DNA of 7,007 nucleotides from IMG/VR virus record IMGVR_UViG_2690316343_000005. One strand, given 5' to 3'. The DNA is from a virus (lineage: Duplodnaviria; Heunggongvirae; Uroviricota; Caudoviricetes). This document shows positions 1 to 7,007 of this stretch, in pieces. Under the pieces are notes generated by a model. The model did no database searches. It was not told where the DNA came from and saw only the letters and a list, made by a program, of their open reading frames with translations. Both the position numbers and the translations under genes were made by a program. The number at the start of each line of letters is the position of its first letter. Position 1 is the first letter of the stretch.

Positions 1-437
1 GCCCATACCGGCGGCTTACCATCCGGATACTGGATCTTGTTTGTAAAAACCTCGCTTTCAATAAATTTTTTTCCGTGACAGCAGGGGCACTGTTTTTTGC
101 TCGCCGCGCTACGGGCATAATCTTCAAACGCATACGAAGCCATAATACGCATCACTGCCGGTTTTATTTCTGCCGGGAGTTTTCTTAACGCCGCCACGCG
201 ATCACACCGACTGAGTGCATATTCTGTCAGCAATTCTGTTGCCCGCTCTCTGTCATTCATACTAATGCCCATTTTCCCAAGGAACGCAGAAACCCCCATC
301 TCAGCCCGATTCTGTGTCATGCCCTGCGCGGCCATCACATCAGTGATACTCAGCGCATCTTTCGACGTTGAGGCCGATGCATCAGTCAGGCCGGGGGATT
401 TTGGGGAGTAGTATTTCGGTAAATCTTCCAGTTTCAT
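1..437 (-). CDS. Q: Antitermination protein Q (lambda Q family), N-terminal 145 codons; C-terminus runs off the left window edge
   Basis: Manual minus-strand translation from ATG at 437..435 gives MKLEDLPKYYSPKSPGLTDASASTSKDALSITDVMAAQGMTQ...KQCPCCHGKKFIE with no stop to position 1. It closely parallels lambda Q as recalled (MRLESVAKFHSPKSP...GTDVMAAMGMAQ...CRDCHGTG zinc motif). The ATG overlaps the rusA TGA (ATGA). Confidence 0.85.
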   Translation of the reverse strand, partial: MKLEDLPKYYSPKSPGLTDASASTSKDALSITDVMAAQGMTQNRAEMGVSAFLGKMGISMNDRERATELLTEYALSRCDRVAALRKLPAEIKPAVMRIMASYAFEDYARSAASKKQCPCCHGKKFIESEVFTNKIQYPDGKPPVW

Positions 438-814
438 TTTTTGACCTGCCCTTCAAGCATTATGGGATAAATCTTCACCCCCAGACGTCCACCAGATACT
501 GGCTGACCACGAACGATATTGATTTCATCAAACTGCTCATCGTCCATTAGCAACCCCGCATGCGTCAGCGCATCCAGCGGCGCTTTCAGAATATTGTCCA
601 GGTCACGGCGGCGCTTATCCGGTGGTTCTGCAATAATTTTTATTGCCAACCTTCCGGACAGGCTTAATTTCAGCCGCTGCTGGCGAACAATAAGCGCCAC
701 TGCCCGGCGATAACGCTCCCCGGCTTTTGATACAAAATATGTGCTGCCACGACGACGCCAGTAAGTGTTCACCGTCGGCGGGTAAGGTAAAACAAATTCT
801 ATGCGCTCGGTCAT
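434..814 (-). CDS. rusA: Crossover junction endodeoxyribonuclease RusA (Holliday junction resolvase)
   Basis: 126-aa ORF with RusA hallmarks (LPYPPTVNTYW, DKRRRDLDNILKAPLDALTHAGLLMDDEQ) similar to E. coli RusA as recalled. ATG at 814..812 directly abuts the upstream gene's TAA. Confidence 0.9.
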   Translation of the reverse strand: MTERIEFVLPYPPTVNTYWRRRGSTYFVSKAGERYRRAVALIVRQQRLKLSLSGRLAIKIIAEPPDKRRRDLDNILKAPLDALTHAGLLMDDEQFDEINIVRGQPVSGGRLGVKIYPIMLEGQVKK

Positions 815-1873
815 TTATGCTTTCCACTTCAGAACACCCGAATTTCTCGCGTGCATTAAAAAACGAATCAGCAACAACAGCTGACTGCCGTGTTTCTCTT
901 CAAAATCTTTTACTCCGGCATGTAGTTCGTTACGGCATTTACGGCATAACGGAATAACAAACAAATCATCAGCCTTTGTTCCCATCCCTCCCAGTCCATG
1001 ACCAATGATGTGATGCGGATCATCTGCCTGATTGCCACACGTCATGCATTTCTGCGTTTTTACCCAGCGCGTGTATACAGGCATCTCTTCCCGTTGTGAT
1101 TTCTGGCGCTGGAGATACTGAGCCGGTGACTCCGGATCAACGGCAATGCTGACCACCGTCTTTTCCTGTGGTGGGTTCTGTTGCTGGTGGACGTGAGGCA
1201 GTAACGCAATATTTTTTGTGCGCTGCTTCAGTATGCTGGTGGCTGTCTGCTCTCCCGGTATGATGTCGCTTTCACTGTACACAGAGCGAATTTTTTCCGC
1301 ACGCAACCCCAGCGAACGACGTAATACCGCTTCCGGTAGCGCGTCCGCCACCTGATTGCGGACCGCCCACCAGGATAATTCAGCCAGAGATAATTCACGC
1401 TCCTGCGTACCGCTTATTGCGTGACCGATGACGTCAATCATCCATGCTGACAGGTTTTGATGAGCAAGTTGCTCGAGTGATTCGGATGTCTGGTCACGCA
1501 GCTGGTTGTCGCAGTGCCAGCACAACACCATTGCGCCGGTACCATAACGGTGAATGACGGTTTCGCTGTGATGATAATCGCCGTGTGGCCACTGGCAGGA
1601 TTTAATATGGCGCAACAGCCAGTCAGACAATGCACCAGCACCACCAGCAGCACGAATCACCCGTGCGTTACTGAAAAACGGCAGCAATGTTTTGTCTTCC
1701 ACCAGCGGCTGGCGAGCGGCAGGAACGACCCCGGACGGCAGATTACGCATGCTTTTTGGTTCCGGCTCCACCAGTATTCTGCCGTTATGGAATGCTGACA
1801 TTGATTCACGGCCTGGCTTAACGATAACCAGACCGAGTTCCGGTACCAGAACAGGTCGAAGTAATACCCGCAC
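815..1873 (-). CDS. DUF968-like (YdfU-like) prophage protein with C-terminal HNH-type Cys/His motif
   Basis: 352-aa ORF. C-terminus CMTCGNQADDPHHIIGHGLGG...LCRKCRNELH resembles an HNH/zinc-finger nuclease motif. A DUF968 gene sits between hok and Q in E. coli Qin prophage, as recalled. Start is GTG at 1873 preceded by GGAGGT; an alternative ATG lies at 1801. Confidence 0.65.
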   Translation of the reverse strand: MRVLLRPVLVPELGLVIVKPGRESMSAFHNGRILVEPEPKSMRNLPSGVVPAARQPLVEDKTLLPFFSNARVIRAAGGAGALSDWLLRHIKSCQWPHGDYHHSETVIHRYGTGAMVLCWHCDNQLRDQTSESLEQLAHQNLSAWMIDVIGHAISGTQERELSLAELSWWAVRNQVADALPEAVLRRSLGLRAEKIRSVYSESDIIPGEQTATSILKQRTKNIALLPHVHQQQNPPQEKTVVSIAVDPESPAQYLQRQKSQREEMPVYTRWVKTQKCMTCGNQADDPHHIIGHGLGGMGTKADDLFVIPLCRKCRNELHAGVKDFEEKHGSQLLLLIRFLMHARNSGVLKWKA

Positions 1874-1948
1874 ATTACCTCCAGATCCGTTGCTGGAATG
1901 TGCGGGACGGACGCGTTGGCCGTTCGGAGTAAGGGAGCCTGACGGAGA

Positions 1949-2230
1949 TTATCCAGTGACGGTAGTCGAGGCTAAGGGCTTTTTTAACCTCGCATCCGCG
2001 CCTGCGGTAACACTGAATGAGCCATTCGGCCTGTTCTTCAGTGCATGGGGGATGCTGGTACCAATCAGATTTAAATGCGTGAGAGCGCCGCCCGTGCCTG
2101 CTGGCAAAGACGGCTGAATTATCAGAATTGTGTAGTCTGGAAGGCAGTGGCTGACAATAGCGCCATTCTCAACGCGCACAGTATAGAGGCCATCTTCACT
2201 AAAAATTTCACGTAATTCTTCGATTTTCAT
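1949..2230 (-). CDS. Small hypothetical protein, copy 1 (MKIEELREIFSEDGLYTVRVENGAIVSHC...); shares first 29 codons with 2757..3044
   Basis: ATG at 2230..2228 preceded by GGAAGG 9 nt upstream. N-terminal 29 codons lie inside the 252-bp direct repeat; the C-terminal ~64 aa are unique. Confidence 0.4.
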   Translation of the reverse strand: MKIEELREIFSEDGLYTVRVENGAIVSHCLPDYTILIIQPSLPAGTGGALTHLNLIGTSIPHALKNRPNGSFSVTAGADARLKKPLASTTVTG

Positions 2231-2400
2231 CAACAGAATCCTTCCAGATAAATAGCACTCCCCTGTTCGGGGTCCATCCCTCTTCTCCCTGCGCGCTACT
2301 TAAGTATTTTTGATTCTATTCCGGCACCATCTAAAACTTCAAACGCGTTGAAAATAAAAACAAAAACCCGCCGAAACGCTGAGAGATCACAGCGATGGGC
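2149..2400. repeat. 252-bp direct repeat, copy 1 (hok-type terminator hairpin + promoter-like region + 5' end of small ORF); truncated by gap
   Basis: Aligns without indels to 2962..3213. Flanks are near-identical (gctgacaat...cttaagt and cccgccgaaacgctgagagatcacagcgatgggc); the central ~60 bp diverges. Confidence 0.8.
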
Positions 2401-2411
2401 NNNNNNNNNNN
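2401..2411. other. Assembly gap (11 N)
   Basis: Run of N in the sequence; it cuts a terminator hairpin on one side and an ORF on the other. Confidence 0.95.
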
Positions 2412-2718
2412 ATTGCTCTGCGGCTTCGCTCAGAGCTGGCGTATGTTCCCGGCCTACTGATTCACACAGGTAATCAACGAAACCGGACACCAGTTTTCGT
2501 TCGCGAGGCGTGATCGCCCCACCGACCGGAGTCCAGTAATCGAAACCCAGTTGCAGGAGTTTGAAAAAACGCTTGTGGAATGCGTAGTTACACACACGCT
2601 TAAAGTCTGCGTGTATCCACTCACCTATTTTGATTTGATGCAGAAAATCGCAACTCTCCGGCGTCGCCGGGAGAAGTAATCCGGAAGAGGTTTGTTTGAC
2701 CAGTTGTATATGTGCCAT
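2412..2718 (-). CDS. Hypothetical protein, partial (C-terminus lost in gap): MAHIQLVKQTSSGLLLPATPESCDFLHQIKIGEWIHADFKRVCNYAFHKRFFKLL...
   Basis: ATG at 2718..2716 with GGAG 7 nt upstream. Open frame continues to the N-run at 2411. The ORF-track TTG extension to 2760 has no RBS. No family recognised. Confidence 0.5.
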
Positions 2719-2756
2719 CGGCTTTCTCCGGTGGCACGGTGTTACACAGCAGGAGT

Positions 2757-3044
2757 TCAATCCTGCTCAAGATTGTAGATGAGTTTATTCTTCAGCAAAA
2801 GCAGAAAACCAGCCTTAAAACCAATCTCTTTCAAAACCCGTAATGATGTGACAAATTCGTCCTCACGCAAAATAAAACCGTCCGTCAGAAGTCCATTACA
2901 AAAATAAAATAACACAGCACCGCTCTTCCTTTGTTGAGATTGCAAACATCTAATGCGGCAATGGCTGACAATCGCTCCATTCTCAACGCGCACAGCATAG
3001 AGGCCATTTTCACTAAAAATTTCACGCAATTCTTCGATTTTCAT
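2757..3044 (-). CDS. Small hypothetical protein, copy 2 (MKIEELREIFSENGLYAVRVENGAIVSHC...), divergent C-terminus
   Basis: 95-aa ORF beginning inside the second 252-bp repeat copy, with the same RBS context as copy 1. Sits just downstream of the hok terminator and a promoter-like TTGATT-N16-TAGAAT. Confidence 0.4.
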   Translation of the reverse strand: MKIEELREIFSENGLYAVRVENGAIVSHCRIRCLQSQQRKSGAVLFYFCNGLLTDGFILREDEFVTSLRVLKEIGFKAGFLLLLKNKLIYNLEQD

Positions 3045-3213
3045 CTTCAGAATCCTTCCAGATAAATAGCTCTCCCCTGTTCGGGGTCCATCCCTCTTCT
3101 CCCTGCGCGCTACTTAAGTGAGTCGATTCTATCTGCGAAGGTGCGCGAATCAAATTCACCGGAAATAAACAACAAAAAACCCGCCGAAACGCTGAGAGAT
3201 CACAGCGATGGGC
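2962..3213. repeat. 252-bp direct repeat, copy 2
   Basis: See copy 1; identical length with scattered substitutions. Confidence 0.8.
3126..3153 (-). promoter_or_regulatory. Putative sigma70 promoter for the small ORF (minus strand TTGATT-N16-TAGAAT)
   Basis: Minus-strand -35 TTGATT (plus 3148..3153) and -10 TAGAAT (plus 3126..3131), 16-nt spacer, immediately downstream of the hok terminator. Read by eye only. Confidence 0.3.
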
Positions 3214-3216
3214 GGG
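3165..3216 (-). terminator. Rho-independent terminator of the hok transcript
   Basis: Minus-strand CCCGCC-(25 nt with inner CGCTG/CAGCG stem)-GGCGGG followed by TTTTTTGTTGTT. The same hairpin recurs, truncated, at 2367..2400. Confidence 0.6.
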
Positions 3217-3220
3217 TTAA

Positions 3221-3285
3221 GTGCGGGTGCGTTGAGGATGCCTGACACATCAGAGGTGGGCGGGGATGGGATCAGCTCCCCGCCC
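3221..3285 (-). promoter_or_regulatory. hok mRNA 3' UTR structure: 8-bp GC stem-loop (3258..3285) plus fbi-like element (3221..3237) complementary to the 5' leader
   Basis: GGGCGGGG-12 nt-CCCCGCCC lies 9 nt after the hok stop. Plus-strand 3221..3237 gtgcgggtgcgttgagg is the reverse complement, with one bulge, of 3792..3807 cctcaagcacccgcag. Confidence 0.5.
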
Positions 3286-3293
3286 GGTCACTC

Positions 3294-3633
3294 TTACTTC
3301 CTGGATTCGTAGTCTACGAAGACAGCGACCTCCGTCTGGCCGGTTCGGATTCGTACCTCACAGAGGTCTTTCCTCGTTACCAGTGCCGTCACTATGACGG
3401 TNNNNNNNNNNNNNNNNNNNNNNNNNNNNNNNNNNNNNNNNNNNNNNNNNNNNNNNNNNNNNNNNNNNNNNNNNNNNNNNNNNNNNNNNNNNNNNNNNNN
3501 NNNNNNNNNNNNNCTCCGTCTGGCCGGTTCGAATTCGTACCTCGCAGAGGTCTTTCCTCGTTACCAGTGCCGTCACTATGACGGTTAAACAGATGACGAT
3601 CAGGGCGATTAACATCGCCTTTTGCTGCTTCAT
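3294..3633 (-). CDS. hok: Hok-family type I toxin (51 aa), split in this assembly by the N-gap and a 72-bp duplicated overlap
   Basis: ATG at 3633..3631 with AGGAG 9 nt upstream. Reads MKQQKAMLIALIVICLTVIVTALVTRKDLCEVRIRTGQTE (3514..3633), then gap, then ...EVAVFVDYESRK with stop at 3296..3294. Removing 112 N and the 72-bp duplicate gives exactly 156 nt. Near-identical to E. coli HokD/RelF as recalled. Confidence 0.85.
3402..3513. other. Assembly gap (112 N) flanked by a 72-bp near-identical overlap (3330..3401 vs 3514..3585)
   Basis: The flanks differ at two positions (G/A, A/G), both synonymous in hok. Confidence 0.95.
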
Positions 3634-3839
3634 AGCCTGCTTCTCCTTGCCTTTCGGCATGTAAGAGGCTAACCTACATGTGCAAAGCATGAAATTGGCC
3701 TCAGATTAATGTTAAGCGTCTTGCCGGACGCGTAATGTTAACTGGGGCTTTTCTCTATCTGCCTTTTGGTGTTCATGCCTGAAGCAGATAGCCTCAAGCA
3801 CCCGCAGTCATTCTACTTACCTCGCCAATATGAAATCAA
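3634..3839 (-). promoter_or_regulatory. hok promoter and long 5' leader (tac-like element; expected mok/sok region)
   Basis: Minus-strand -35 TTGATT (plus 3834..3839), 18-nt spacer, -10 TAGAAT (plus 3810..3815). The leader begins with GCGGGTGCTTGAGG, complementary to the 3' UTR element. The ~170-nt leader fits hok/sok-type loci. A sok promoter could not be pinpointed. Confidence 0.4.
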
Positions 3840-3860
3840 TCAGAAAGGTGCCCCATAAAA

Positions 3861-4547
3861 TCACTCCTTCTCTTCTTTACCGTAGTGGAGTTGACCAATT
3901 TTGATAAGAGGGCGTCCCTGAGATTTGCGGTGTAGATTGGTATCGCGCAGAGAATACACACAGCCACAATATTCCTGCTGATAGAATTTTTCGCGCTTGC
4001 TGATTTCAATCATACGGGACGAGCCGCCCTGCTTGCGCCAGTTATAATCCCAGTACACCATGCCCGGATAATGCGCGACGGCTCGCCGCCCACAGTCGTT
4101 AACCTGCTGCATATTTTTCCAGCGTGAAATGCCCAGTGAACTGCTGATCACACTGAAACCATTTTCAGCGGCGTACAGCGCTGTCCGCTCAAAACGCATG
4201 TCAAAACACATGGTGCAACGGATCCCTCGTTCGGGCTCCCATTCCATTCCTTTGGCTCGTTCAAACCAGTTGTCTGTGTCGTAATCAGCATCAATAAACG
4301 GCACGCCGTGTTGTTCAGCAAAGCGAATATTCTCATCCTTACGAATTAAATACTCTTTCTGAGGATGAATGTTCGGGTTGTAGAAAAAGATGGTGTAGTC
4401 GATTCCCGAGGCCTGAAGCGCCTCCATCACCTCACCGGAACATGGAGCACAGCAAGAGTGCAGTAGTAGTTTGTTTGCCCCGTTTGGGAGCTCCAATTTG
4501 GGCCGTTTGAAATCAGCAACTGTCATAAATATGTTTATTGGGGTCAT
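3861..4547 (-). CDS. queH: QueH-like epoxyqueuosine reductase homolog (DUF208 family, Fe-S enzyme)
   Basis: 228-aa ORF with [15 protein letters not shown] near the N-terminus plus conserved [19 protein letters not shown] and QEYCGCVYS motifs typical of DUF208/QueH. An alternative ATG lies at 4526; neither start has a clear RBS. Confidence 0.8.
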
Positions 4548-4694
4548 AAAAATATCAAAGAGTGTAGCATTAGAACGGGGCTATCGGAAACAGATGTGTG
4601 ACTGCTCCCCGCCCTTTCGGGTGGTCTCCTGATGATTTGAGGGTGCAGAAATCCCTCCGGTTAAGGATTAAATTTTTAACAGTGCTAAATTTAA

Positions 4695-5108
4695 TTATTC
4701 AGTTCTGGATTTTGTCGCCCTGCGTATCCGCGCTTTCGCGTTACGCTCAATCTGTATCAGCTTTTCTATATTTCTCCGCCTTTCCTGTTCCTCCTGGCGC
4801 AATAGCCTTACATCATCTGCCAGTCTGGTTTCTCTTTTTGCCACAGAGAGCATCCAGTCAAACGGCTCCACAACCGCACCGCAGATTTTACAGCGGACCT
4901 GACGCTCTTTTTCGTCAACCCGGACAGAGGCGTGATGGCAATATGGTCTTTCCGATGGCTCATAAAGAAAATTAACCTGATTACGAGGGTCATCCTCTTT
5001 TACCGGAAATAAAACGATATTGCTTAACTCATCTTCTGGTTTTATTTCCATGCTCCTCTCCTTTGATGCGAATGCCAGCGGTAATTGAAGCCTGATAGCT
5101 AATTTCAT
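4695..5108 (-). CDS. Hypothetical zinc-ribbon protein with basic coiled-coil C-terminus
   Basis: C-H-H...C-x2-C cluster (YCHHASVRVDEKERQVRCKICG) followed by a charged helical tail (RLLRQEEQERRRNIEKLIQIERNAKARIRR). ATG at 5108 abuts the upstream TGA (AGGAGG 11 nt upstream); an alternative ATG at 5051 has AGGAG 6 nt upstream. Confidence 0.6.
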   Translation of the reverse strand: MKLAIRLQLPLAFASKERSMEIKPEDELSNIVLFPVKEDDPRNQVNFLYEPSERPYCHHASVRVDEKERQVRCKICGAVVEPFDWMLSVAKRETRLADDVRLLRQEEQERRRNIEKLIQIERNAKARIRRATKSRTE

Positions 5109-5531
5109 TCACAGTATCGCCTCCTGAAAATTACCCTGATAGAAAGCCAGTACACGCTGCATAGCTTCGCTCTTCCGGCACTCGCGACAGATTATATTCA
5201 GGCGCCTGTCGTAGCGGCGTATTTCTCCGTCAGGTAATGACCAGATAAGGTCCGGATCAACAACAACCGGTTTCCTCACCTTTACTCTCGAGAGTTTTTT
5301 GCGGGCGCTTTGCCAGTCCTTGCGAGCCTGTTCAGACGGGAATAAGCCGTAGCCAGAATTATATACATCACCACTTGCGACCAGTTCTATGCATAAGCGA
5401 CCGACAGACGCACGACTGATACCTGTTTCATCTGACAACTGCCGAATCGTGACCCGACCGTCCTGATGCACGAGTTCCACAATTCGCGTCTTCAGTTCTT
5501 CCCGCTGTTCGGGAGTAAAAGGTTTCGCCAT
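5109..5531 (-). CDS. Winged-helix DNA-binding protein, possibly YdaW/DUF977-like, with C-terminal CxxC
   Basis: 140-aa ORF. N-terminal HTH-like segment (TIRQLSDETGISRASVGRLCIELVASG) and CRECRK near the C-terminus. AGGAGG lies 4 nt before the ATG. Its position after the DnaC-like gene mirrors ydaU-ydaV-ydaW in Rac prophage, as recalled. Confidence 0.65.
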   Translation of the reverse strand: MAKPFTPEQREELKTRIVELVHQDGRVTIRQLSDETGISRASVGRLCIELVASGDVYNSGYGLFPSEQARKDWQSARKKLSRVKVRKPVVVDPDLIWSLPDGEIRRYDRRLNIICRECRKSEAMQRVLAFYQGNFQEAIL

Positions 5532-5545
5532 AAATCCTCCTGAAA

Positions 5546-6292
5546 CTACTTAACAACCCTCGAATGGCTAACATTCGGACGCCAGCTCTCCCAGTTAAAA
5601 TTCACCCAGCGCCCGCCGTTCATGACCATGCGATCCATCACCCGCTCGCCGAGCAATGTTTTCATCACCTCATAGTTCAGGTTTGTCAGCATCCCCACGC
5701 TGCGCATCGACGCTGTCCGGCGATCAACAATCTGGTGCAGCACCACCTGCTCGTTTTTCGTCTCGCGCTGAATGCCAATTTCATCAAGAACCAGCAGATC
5801 CACTTCGCACAGCTCCCGCAAAAATTTTTCGCCTGACTGCCCGTCGTCATAGCTGGCGTGCAGGGCGCTCATAACATCAGCCACGGTAACCACAATCACT
5901 GTCTGACCGTCTTTCAGCAGGCGATTCCCGATAGCTGCCGCTAAGTGATTCTTCCCGGTACCAGGTTTTCCGCTGAACGCAAAATTTGTACACCCGGTCA
6001 TCAGTTCATCGGCGATGGATTTCGCCTGGCTTAACGCGTATCGCTGGCCGTCGTTCTGCACCTGGTAATTCGCAAACGAGCATTTACGGTGCAACGGCTG
6101 GATGCCTGAGCGATTCAGAATTTTTTCCACCCGCAACTGGCGATTCAGGCGGTTGATCTCCTCGCTACGTTTCTGGCCTTCAGCAAGTTGCCACTCGCGC
6201 CACTCCGCTACCGTTCTGAATGGGGCGGTTACATGTGGCGGGGTCAGTCGGCGGATGCGTTCCAGAACGCCGCCTGTCGCAATATTTTTCAT
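5546..6292 (-). CDS. DnaC-like replicative helicase loader (IstB-like AAA+ ATPase)
   Basis: 248 aa with Walker A FSGKPGTGKNHLAAAIGN and Walker B DLLVLDEIG. Collinear high similarity to E. coli DnaC as recalled (NRSGIQPLH, LGERVMDRM). Confidence 0.9.
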   Translation of the reverse strand: MKNIATGGVLERIRRLTPPHVTAPFRTVAEWREWQLAEGQKRSEEINRLNRQLRVEKILNRSGIQPLHRKCSFANYQVQNDGQRYALSQAKSIADELMTGCTNFAFSGKPGTGKNHLAAAIGNRLLKDGQTVIVVTVADVMSALHASYDDGQSGEKFLRELCEVDLLVLDEIGIQRETKNEQVVLHQIVDRRTASMRSVGMLTNLNYEVMKTLLGERVMDRMVMNGGRWVNFNWESWRPNVSHSRVVK

Positions 6293-6298
6293 GGTCCG

Positions 6299-7007
6299 TT
6301 ACCCCCTGAAGCCTGGCGGGATCGCACTGTCCGGCAACGAGACGGTGTTAACCTGTCGGAGCAACGTCTCAGGCCGAACACCTTTCGGCGCGAACAGGCC
6401 CTGGTATTCATTGGCGATGCTGTGTCGAATCACCTGCTCAGGTGTAAAACCCTGCTGACGGAATTTTTCCAGTTCCCGTATCGCCCCGTTAGCGCCCTGC
6501 TCCGTTCGAATCGGTTTTCGCAATGCCTGTCTGAACCGGACCCACTCATGCCAGAGTGTTTCCGGCAACCAATCGGGCAGCTCAATAGCCTCCGGCTCGA
6601 ATTTTTTAGACGCTCGTTTTTGGCGAGGGGGAGATCAGTATTTAGATCTTCCTCTTCCTCTTCCTCTGGTAACGCTTTTTGATCCGTTTGTGTAACGCTG
6701 GCAGCGTTACCTTTTCGTTTCAGTTCGCGTATTTTTGTTACTCGCTCGTTTGTAACCGCCCGTTTTTTTTAGAGCTTTTTCCGTTATGACGTTCAAAGTT
6801 AGGTAGAGAAAGCCCTCCGTCATTTTCGACCAGCCATCCAACCTGAATTAACGCATCAGCAAAACCAGACATAAAAGTGATGCGATCTATTGCACTTTTT
6901 GTAACGCCGCGAGCGTTACAATCTGCATTACCGTCTATCATTTGTTGATCCGCCCATGCCCAGAAGCGAATAACCTGAGGTAGCCTGAGTTTAACGGACA
7001 CTCCTTC
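6299..7007 (-). pseudogene. Replication initiator (YdaU/DUF1376-like, O-protein analogue) interrupted by two frameshifts at homopolymers; N-terminus may extend past the right edge
   Basis: Three consecutive open frames on the minus strand join into one protein if one A is added at the 8-nt run (plus 6773..6780) and one at the 6-nt run (plus 6602..6607): MSVKLRLPQV...GKSSKK|RAVTNERVTKIRELKRK...PEEEEEEDL...AKNERLK|FEPEAIELPDWLPETLWHEW...GFRG*. The stop is 6 nt before the DnaC-like ATG. Confidence 0.6.
6633..6770. repeat. Origin-like sequence cluster inside the replication gene: 3 GATC sites in 52 bp, (GAGGAA)x3, perfect 9-bp inverted repeat GTAACGCTG-g-CAGCGTTAC and related TTTGTAAC(C)GC motifs
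   Basis: GATC at 6633, 6645 and 6681; cttcct x3 at 6649..6667; inverted repeat at about 6691..6709; similar motifs near 6669 and 6755. Confidence 0.3.

Follow-up and report, generated by a model that had tools for sequence, protein, structure and literature searches.

Rem (b1561, Pfam PF27490) is an antirepressor of DicA in the Qin cryptic prophage of E. coli K-12, as has been shown experimentally (Ragunathan et al. 2023, PMC10448788), and was first found via its distant similarity to GfoA and FsoA (PMC10448788). GfoA, GftA and FsoA are antirepressors of the Gifsy and Fels-1 prophages of Salmonella, where they are encoded in a dinI-antirepressor-irsA operon (Lemire et al. 2011, PMC3121763).

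Here, we analysed a stretch of 7,007 nucleotides of a viral sequence record (IMGVR_UViG_2690316343_000005), referred to as the window, in which the start of a rem gene occurs twice. The window is very probably a draft S. sonnei scaffold, in which an unresolved repeat of two lambdoid prophages is laid out with its alternative branches in series; the duplication would not be genomic. Copy 2 is an intact rem gene and copy 1 a deletion stub. Two N runs split the window into three blocks, A, B and C. The features are given below, with the records used for comparison being numbered from L001 onwards.

1-2400, minus strand: block A, piece of prophage 1, with the start of the Q antiterminator gene, rusA, DUF968, phrog_1212 remnant, rem stub and 3' half of the hok terminator
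434-814, minus strand: rusA (Pfam RusA, 2.1e-16)
815-1873, minus strand: DUF968 (ydfU-like) gene (Pfam DUF968, 2.6e-62)
1878-2141, minus strand: remnant of a conserved 92-aa gene (phrog_1212, 6.2e-35) upstream of DUF968, start codon and first ~4 codons deleted
1949-2230, minus strand: copy-1 ORF, 93 aa, rem codons 1-29 joined out of frame to the phrog_1212 gene, probably non-functional
2143-2305, minus strand: conserved block, copy 1, rem leader and first 29 codons
2144-2230, minus strand: rem 5' stub, 29 codons (deletion junction 2142/2143)
2313-2342, minus strand: promoter-like site upstream of the rem stub, TTGAAG-18-TAGAAT (consensus scan only)
2379-2400, minus strand: chimeric end of block A, long-loop hok terminator of the prophage-2 type (comparison with L008 and L012)
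2401-2411, no strand: 11-N run, probable false join of prophage 1 to prophage 2, without counterpart in the finished genomes examined
2412-3401, minus strand: block B, piece of prophage 2, with the DUF1367 5' part, intact rem, hok terminator and hok 3' part
2413-2718, minus strand: DUF1367/irsA homologue, first 102 codons, cut by the block end (Pfam DUF1367, 1.7e-46, profile 1-101 of 198)
2757-3044, minus strand: copy-2 ORF, intact rem, 95 aa, DicA-type antirepressor by homology (K-12 Rem, phrog_340, PF27490)
2957-3119, minus strand: conserved block, copy 2, rem leader and first 29 codons (repeat alignment)
3126-3153, minus strand: promoter-like site upstream of copy-2 rem, TTGATT-16-TAGAAT (consensus scan only)
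3172-3218, minus strand: hok mRNA intrinsic terminator, long-loop, with T tract (fold -22.8 kcal/mol, z = -5.0)
3294-3401, minus strand: hok 3' part, prophage-2 allele, end of block B (translation ...TALVTRKDLCEVRIRTGQTEVAVFVDYESRK; hokD annotated there in L002)
3402-3513, no strand: 112-N run, no missing sequence under it (overlap of blocks B and C in L002 and L017)
3514-3585, minus strand: start of block C, duplicate of 3330-3401 with two SNPs of the prophage-1 hok allele
3514-7007, minus strand: block C, rest of prophage 2, with the hok 5' part, sok/mok region, QueH, a hypothetical gene, DUF977, a ydaV/DnaC-like gene, a truncated replication gene and an IS end
6976-7007, in block C: IS end

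The copy-2 ORF shares 67.5% identity with K-12 Rem across 80 aligned aa (E 1e-28) and matches phrog_340 (6e-20), and the PF27490 (Rem) label is precomputed for the identical protein. Copy 2 is thus a full-length member of the Rem family (PF27490); the family assignment came from the precomputed PF27490 labels and PHROGs, while NCBIfam and local Pfam scans returned no family for either small ORF. As in K-12, copy-2 rem lies directly downstream of hokD, and homologues of DicA (62% identity) and DicC are encoded in the same prophage, ~4.6 kb upstream of rem. In contrast, copy 2 has 95 aa compared to 83 aa in K-12, the last ~15 residues differ, and rem is followed by DUF1367/irsA rather than by ydfU/DUF968. 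By analogy, copy-2 Rem is a putative antirepressor of a DicA-type repressor, an activity demonstrated only for K-12 Rem, and the 95-aa 'hypothetical protein' annotated in S. sonnei could be named a Rem-family antirepressor.

The neighbourhood of copy 2 also resembles the Gifsy/Fels-1 operon, since the antirepressor gene is located immediately upstream of irsA (DUF1367), between the replication genes and Q, an order also found in record MN652886; in prophage 2, intact rem sits directly upstream of the irsA/DUF1367 homologue, which is full-length (199 aa) in L002, L015 and L019. The window differs from this operon in that it contains no dinI homologue and has hok/sok upstream instead. Furthermore, no LexA box (CTGT-N8-ACAG, one mismatch allowed) is present in 2231-2350 or 3045-3175, and a Gifsy-like SOS operon was therefore rejected for rem. 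Promoter-like sites precede both rem starts at a number not above the shuffled expectation, and no promoter is claimed. A Hok toxin ORF (HOK_GEF, 1.5e-18), a sok antisense region (Rfam, 3628-3803, 117 bits) and the terminator at the 3' end of the mRNA, ~75 nt past the stop codon of hok, are all present, as in the hok/sok (hokD/gef) inserts of lambdoid prophages with their strong terminator after hok; nothing is unusual here. The Pfam scan also identified QueH in block C. The sok match, upstream of hok, was the sole Rfam hit, with no RNA family detected inside the repeated module. The terminator exists in two forms, with a long or a short loop, which tell prophage 2 from prophage 1.

Self-comparison of the window revealed direct repeats of 163 nt (2143-2305 and 2957-3119, 94% identity) and of 50 nt (2351-2400 and 3164-3213, 90% identity, the final 39 nt being identical), so that the module copies 2143-2400 and 2957-3213 lie at an offset of 813-814 nt; their similarity is far above chance. 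The module comprises the terminator of the hok mRNA and, after it, the leader and first 29 codons of rem, and marks the boundary of the hok/sok toxin-antitoxin insert with the next gene, rem. Both copies open a minus-strand ORF with these 29 codons. A preliminary description, which saw the letters of the window only, had proposed a duplicated 252-bp module in two directly oriented copies ~810 bp apart, with identical N-termini and coding sequences that diverge completely after codon 29. The repeats, their orientation, the terminator and the complete divergence past codon 29 were confirmed; the module is not uniform, however, as ~45 nt between the two conserved pieces cannot be aligned, the shared codons contain two amino-acid differences (D13N, T17A), and the two copies do not belong to one locus, finished genomes keeping them separate.

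Copy 1 differs from L001 by a deletion. Positions 1-2142 of the window map to L001 2303-4441 and positions 2143-2378 to L001 4692-4927, with 250 bp missing compared to L001, and the junction sequence, CACTGCC|TTCCAGAC, shows no microhomology. L001 carries both an intact rem and an intact 92-aa gene, and the gene table of L006 lists intact rem, the 92-aa gene and DUF968 in the same order. The phrog_1212 remnant of the window, whose frame has no start codon, aligns with the intact genes at L001 4174-4452 and L004 5875-6153. Lost in the deletion are all rem codons from 30 onwards, the spacer between the two genes and the first ~4 codons of phrog_1212, and the remaining 29-codon stub continues out of frame into the phrog_1212 gene for another 64 codons. 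In line with this, only residues 1-29 of the copy-1 ORF match phrog_340 and K-12 Rem, and the other 64 aa have no family match and overlap the phrog_1212 frame. The copy-1 ORF, which keeps just these 29 codons, is not a Rem protein, as the preliminary description had suspected in allowing for at most one real protein among the two small ORFs. The break past codon 29 is a real junction, because chromosome-sized S. sonnei contigs contain the identical 93-aa ORF; the protein was found in S. sonnei only. The version with an ATG start is on record, and a 94-aa version starting with TTG is not.

In the records compared, the rem 5' block is joined to a Rem-type tail (L001, L002, K-12), to the tail of a 57-aa form (L003, L004, P0067) or to the deletion junction (window, L006-L013). 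With one segment next to differing neighbours across phages, it represents a lambdoid mosaic boundary. The recombination junction suggested in the preliminary description is thus real, with a 5' block carrying varied tails, whereas the duplication within one locus suggested alongside it is not. The 57-aa form (MKIEELREIFSE.GLYAVRVENG...LIPDDHVILSIEAFIEYLERLGFKVVRE) is called a pseudogene by PGAP in L003 and L004. The idea that it is a Rem protein with an internal deletion was dropped, since BLASTP aligns aa 1-26 only and homology of the tail was not established. One could go further and regard the rem 5' block (76-nt leader and ~24-29 codons) as a portable N-terminal module, whose C-terminal parts are swapped by recombination, in which case the widespread 57-aa form would be another functional allele of the antirepressor, differing in repressor specificity; we consider this unlikely, and even if it were true, the window would add only a dead stub. 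An ORF of 14-15 codons in the rem leader, which overlaps the rem start via TGATG in copy 1, was set aside as a candidate leader peptide; it is frame-shifted in L004 and its ATG is lost in L014; the leader-ORF sequences are too similar for a selection test.

The same variety of tails bears on whether copy 1 encodes a new small protein that is functional and combines a Rem N-terminus with a novel C-terminus overprinted on the phrog_1212 gene. Other natural proteins, for example the 57-aa form, pair the N-terminal block with another tail, the copy-1 ORF has kept the rem leader, ribosome-binding region and start codon, and hundreds of S. sonnei assemblies contain it in intact form. However, the ORF is limited to one clonal species, so that its persistence is a weak sign of selection. 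Moreover, the tail, which lacks a family match, overlaps a frame that encodes a strongly conserved phage protein, the junction can be derived from L001, where both genes are intact, by a plain 250-bp deletion, and the prophage around the stub is heavily decayed by IS elements. A functional copy-1 protein is therefore very improbable. The chimeric 93-aa ORF more likely has no function, thereby leaving prophage 1 without an antirepressor, and the 93-aa 'hypothetical protein' annotated in S. sonnei would best be called a rem pseudogene.

The block structure of the window could be resolved by comparison with other genomes. Positions 1-2378 of block A are 99.9% identical to L007, L008 and L012, which are chromosome-sized S. 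sonnei contigs with the neighbouring genes IS, 76-aa, 55-aa and 114-aa ORFs, HOK, rem stub, DUF968, RusA and Antiterm. Block B is identical to L016-L019 and L021 at 990 of 990 positions (window 2412-3401 corresponds to L017 6633-5644), and block C (3514-7007) is 99.4% identical to L017 5715-2204. In L002 (4919-4990) and L017 (5644-5715), 72 bp are common to blocks B and C, and the 112-N gap therefore hides no missing sequence. The corresponding repeat in the window (3330-3401 and 3514-3585, 72 nt, two mismatches) flanks the 112-N run and shows the same problem as at the other gap. There, an 11-N run directly abuts copy 1 (2400|2401), as the gap noted at 2401 in the preliminary description had indicated, and the repeat ends at 2400, 3401 and 3514 adjoin the N runs. 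Both gap edges are chimeric: every prophage-1-type alignment of block A ends at 2378, and the last 22 nt of the block are of the prophage-2 type, with L008 and L012 having AACCCGC-TTCG-GCGGGTT at the position of 2379-2400, where the window has the copy-2 form; the first 72 nt of block C, in turn, carry the prophage-1 hok SNPs.

The finished genomes have the two copies of the module in different prophages. On the 4.82-Mb S. sonnei contig JBEAAA010000004.1, the stub locus (2,426,850-2,439,131) and the intact-rem locus (3,657,851-3,670,138) lie ~1.23 Mb apart. The exact copy-1 ORF is present in 965 blocks of the collection, contigs of >4 Mb among them; in every match listed, hok is immediately upstream and DUF1367 is never adjacent, and nearly all matches listed have IS elements no more than a few kb away on either side. 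An exact match to the copy-2 ORF was found in 4,517 blocks of the collection, in the context QueH, HOK, Rem, DUF1367. The arrangement of the window is absent from 5,426 complete E. coli genomes; the best places in these genomes cover 80% of 1700-3401 within ~1,106 bp of the record, and thus represent a single module matched twice. Of 26 genomes that 'cover' the junction of blocks A and B, 15 were listed; a base-by-base check of the order in two of these, L002 and L003, revealed that the pieces are in reversed order, and the other 13 places have record spans of 685-802 bp, which fit the reversed order and not the ~551 bp of a colinear one. Among 185,579 species-representative genomes, no match was found for the A|B junction with a gap of 0-30 nt (gapped pattern), and among species-representative genomes there was likewise none for an exact 40-mer across the rem-stub junction. 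An N run separates copy 1 from everything to its right and the arrangement does not recur in the finished genomes examined, in contrast to what a genuine duplication should show. The preliminary description had named two findings as speaking against its own proposal, namely copies from different prophages joined by scaffolding, and a conserved family for one C-terminus and not for the other; both were obtained.

Block structure, overlap, chimeric ends, positions in finished genomes and family assignments, all observed directly, suggest the following course of events. Two lambdoid prophages share a near-identical stretch with the hok gene, the terminator, the leader and the 5' end of rem, on which the assembler would have failed, leaving a fork with two alternative branches that the scaffolder would then have placed serially. 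Block C is prophage 2 upstream of hok, block B the prophage-2 branch with hok, terminator, rem and DUF1367, and block A the prophage-1 branch with terminator, rem stub, DUF968, rusA and Q. As the alternative branches would be laid out serially, the 814-bp 'duplication' would not be a genome structure. The window shares N runs at repeat ends, overlapping flanks and allele switching at contig ends with collapsed-repeat forks in short-read scaffolds, and block B likewise resembles a short contig of ~1 kb inserted between two longer ones. The break point of block B is only partly accounted for, as it lies 43 bp short of the IS insertion seen in L017, and not at the IS.

The arrangement might instead be genuine, with a local duplication or rearrangement having brought the modules to a distance of 814 bp within a single prophage and real bases lying under the N runs. 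The window is given as one continuous sequence, some collections write masked stretches as N, so that N runs need not be scaffold gaps, and lambdoid prophages in the IS-rich Shigella rearrange, with IS elements being found on both sides. However, this explanation needs three coincidences, with masks within 0-11 nt of the homology ends at 2400, 3401 and 3514, a 184-bp internal tandem duplication of hok, which is absent from any genome examined, and a fusion of half a terminator to a DUF1367 gene that breaks off at codon 102, which was likewise found in none of the genomes examined; in addition, the SNP pattern switches between the prophage alleles exactly at the gaps. It is hence extremely improbable. 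Almost no weight is given to a recent homologous exchange between the prophages, in which A and C would be a truly contiguous hybrid and only block B misplaced: a crossover in hok would also give a block C that starts with prophage-1 hok SNPs and continues as prophage 2, but in finished genomes of this lineage, prophage 1, with IS, small ORFs, hok and the rem stub, and prophage 2, with QueH, hok, rem and DUF1367, remain separate, and the turn of block A to the prophage-2 terminator form within 22 nt is likelier to reflect contig-end chimerism in a collapsed repeat than one clean crossover.

Under the preferred reading of serially placed repeat branches, the underlying biology is ordinary lambdoid mosaicism and gene decay of a known or common kind: rem behind a hok/sok insert, with one intact copy and one deletion stub in a decayed second prophage. 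It calls for caution, since scaffolds of prophage- and IS-rich genomes such as those of Shigella may show alternative repeat branches serially, which creates false tandem and hok duplications and truncated genes that can be mistaken for biology by readers of the sequence alone. Most public contigs with either ORF are <10 kb in length and many S. sonnei entries are marked 'partial', which fits with routine contig breaks at the hok-rem repeat.

All genes of the window lie on the (-) strand, and two direct copies of a module are indeed present as sequence. A repeat finder and pairwise alignment delimit a first piece of 163 nt (2143-2305 and 2957-3119, 94% identical) and a second of 50 nt (2351-2400 and 3164-3213, 90%, the final 39 nt being identical), separated by about 45 nt that pairwise alignment could not match between the copies. 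The first piece comprises a 76-nt leader and rem codons 1-29, and the second is formed by the 3' half of the intrinsic terminator at the end of the hok mRNA, for which folding gave -22.8 kcal/mol (z = -5.0). The (-) ORFs of copy 1 (93 aa, 1949..2230) and copy 2 (95 aa, 2757..3044) have their 29 starting codons in common except for two substitutions, and share nothing beyond. An 11-N run (2401-2411) directly abuts the end of copy 1, and a further direct repeat of 72 nt with 2 mismatches (3330-3401 and 3514-3585) lies on either side of a 112-N run. The window thus falls into three blocks:

1-2400, genes on (-): block A, prophage 1
2412-3401, genes on (-): block B, prophage 2
3514-7007, genes on (-): block C, prophage 2

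Comparison with finished genomes indicates that these blocks are not neighbours as written. Positions 1-2378 of block A are 99.9% identical to three chromosome-sized S. sonnei contigs (L007, L008 and L012). In the finished genome CP065613 (locus L002), block B corresponds to 4001-4990 and block C to 4919-8389, an overlap of 72 bp; in L017, a chromosome-sized Shigella contig of the prophage-2 type, block B matches 6633-5644 (990/990 identical) and block C 5715-2204 (99.4%), again with a 72-bp overlap. The 112 N and the second 72-nt copy therefore hide no missing sequence. The copy-1 ORF has hok immediately upstream in all places listed, mostly with small ORFs and an IS element before hok, and is followed by DUF968, RusA, Q and a methyltransferase; DUF1367 is adjacent in none of these places. 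The exact copy-2 protein is found in the order ydaV, DUF977, a hypothetical gene, QueH, HOK, Rem, DUF1367, YbcO and DUF1133. The preliminary description had proposed duplication of a 252-bp module about 810 bp apart in one locus, which does not agree with the finished genomes: block A is not adjacent to block B there, and on contig JBEAAA010000004.1 (4.82 Mb) a distance of about 1.23 Mb separates the copy-1 locus (2,426,850-2,439,131) from the copy-2 locus (3,657,851-3,670,138), both being on one strand. The local duplication is very probably a scaffolding artefact.

Searches for the join of blocks A and B gave the same picture. When window 1700-3401 was compared with 5,426 complete E. coli genomes, coverage reached no more than 80%, at places packed within about 1,106 bp of the record, so that one module was matched to both copies. 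A 551-bp query across the gap at 2401 spanned 685-802 bp of the record in the 15 listed places covering at least 80%, and in L002 and the prophage locus L003, which were inspected base by base, the pieces occur in reverse order to the window, with the module upstream of DUF1367. No match to a gapped pattern spanning the join turned up in 185,579 species-representative genomes, and none of the finished genomes examined appears to support this join. A length below 10 kb is usual for public contigs with either ORF, and 'partial' labels are frequent among S. sonnei entries, which fits routine contig breaks at the hok/rem repeat.

The blocks have chimeric ends. In finished genomes of the block-A type, the hok terminator is short (AACCCGC-TTCG-GCGGGTT), and all alignments of this type end at 2378; the final 22 nt of block A are instead the long-loop form proper to prophage 2. 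Conversely, the initial 72 nt of block C carry both SNPs of the prophage-1 hok allele (L008), whereas block B and L017 have the prophage-2 allele at these positions. Such ends are the signature of a collapsed repeat, consisting of hok and its terminator, with two outgoing branches; scaffolding would have put branch B between C and A; this branch would be short because an IS interrupts DUF1367 43 bp further on in this lineage. The long-loop hairpin of prophage 2 (window 3172-3218, -22.8 kcal/mol) differs from the short hairpin of prophage 1 (L008 5843-5875, -11.8 kcal/mol) by an insertion of about 25 nt, which forms an inner stem of its own.

The module is made up of known parts: the terminator of hok/sok, the gene for the Rem antirepressor and what is probably a rem pseudogene left by a deletion. 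The hok gene matches Pfam HOK_GEF, and the region upstream of it matches Rfam sok (117 bits). A protein identical to the 95-aa copy-2 ORF is annotated in Shigella sonnei and labelled PF27490 (Rem). K-12 Rem, whose gene lies in Qin in the order hokD, rem, ydfU, is 67.5% identical to the copy-2 ORF over 80 aa, and its alignment with the copy-1 ORF is limited to aa 1-29. Ragunathan et al. (J Bacteriol 2023, PMC10448788) came upon K-12 Rem through its remote similarity to two Gifsy antirepressors, GfoA and FsoA, and showed that it lifts the repression of dicBp by DicA, leading to 165-fold induction and to filamentation via DicB and DicF. In Gifsy prophages, an irsA homologue lies directly downstream of the antirepressor gene (Lemire et al. 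2011, PMC3121763); irsA is DUF1367 according to the annotation of MN652886, where the order is mok, hok, rem, irsA. The synteny of block B is exactly this antirepressor-irsA order; however, in contrast to the Gifsy antirepressor operon, no LexA box precedes rem here. Homologues of DicA (62% identity) and DicC (72-75%) are encoded about 4.6 kb upstream in prophage 2. The N-terminal half of DUF1367 (window 2413-2718, (-)) also matches phrog_319, labelled 'NinB/Orf homologous recombination mediator' (9e-26); for the Salmonella homologue irsA, the literature gives no clear function. In several S. sonnei genomes, DUF1367/irsA is IS-interrupted about 350 bp into the gene (L017 6327-6707; same place in L018 and L021), and block B ends 43 bp short of this insertion point.

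The copy-1 ORF derives from a deletion. In the comparison prophage L001, rem (86 aa), a 92-aa gene and DUF968 stand in intact order, as in the gene table of L006. Compared with L001, 250 bp are missing from block A (window 2142 corresponds to L001 4441, and 2143 to 4692), so that rem has lost everything from codon 30 onwards, the spacer is gone and the 92-aa gene is without about four of its starting codons. This gene belongs to the conserved phage family phrog_1212 (6e-35), and its frame is open in the window but without a start codon; the rem stub runs across it for 64 more codons in a different frame, giving the 93-aa ORF, whose tail had no family match. The exact ORF occurs in S. sonnei only and, since S. 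sonnei is a clonal species, its persistence is no evidence of function. We take this ORF to be a pseudogene, which would leave prophage 1, riddled with IS elements, without its antirepressor.

Lambdoid mosaicism, which had also been suggested, stands in a general sense, as the rem 5' block adjoins differing sequence across prophages: a Rem-type tail, a 57-aa form and the Shigella deletion junction. The 57-aa form is common in E. coli (protein P0067 is found on at least 1,000 contigs) and by BLASTP shares only aa 1-26 with Rem. Its ORF is open at L003 4370-4540 and L004 6216-6386, both (-) (proteins P0067 and P0074), where PGAP labels a rem 'pseudogene' of 25-26 codons; the tails of the two differ by 4 synonymous and 4 conservative changes. 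With low probability, the 57-aa form may be a second, alternative antirepressor allele.

The rem leader contains an upstream ORF of 14-15 codons, MDPEQG[S/R]AIYLEGF[C], with a Shine-Dalgarno-like GGGAG (window 2230-2277 and 3047-3091, (-)), whose TGA stop overlaps the rem ATG in copy 1 (TGATG). A frameshift disrupts this upstream ORF in L004 and its ATG is missing from L014, so it gives no sign of selection. In block C, a QueH (epoxyqueuosine reductase) gene (3861-4547, (-), Pfam 1.9e-65) lies between the replication genes and hok/sok, and a CCTCTT repeat tract in the replication-gene region (about 6645-6663) is 18 nt, or three GAAGAG hexamer units, shorter than in L017. At the window's right edge an IS cuts the replication gene, as it does in L017 and L018, and the final 32 nt (6976-7007) are identical to IS ends of the HTH_Tnp_1 + rve type in L007, L008 and L012.
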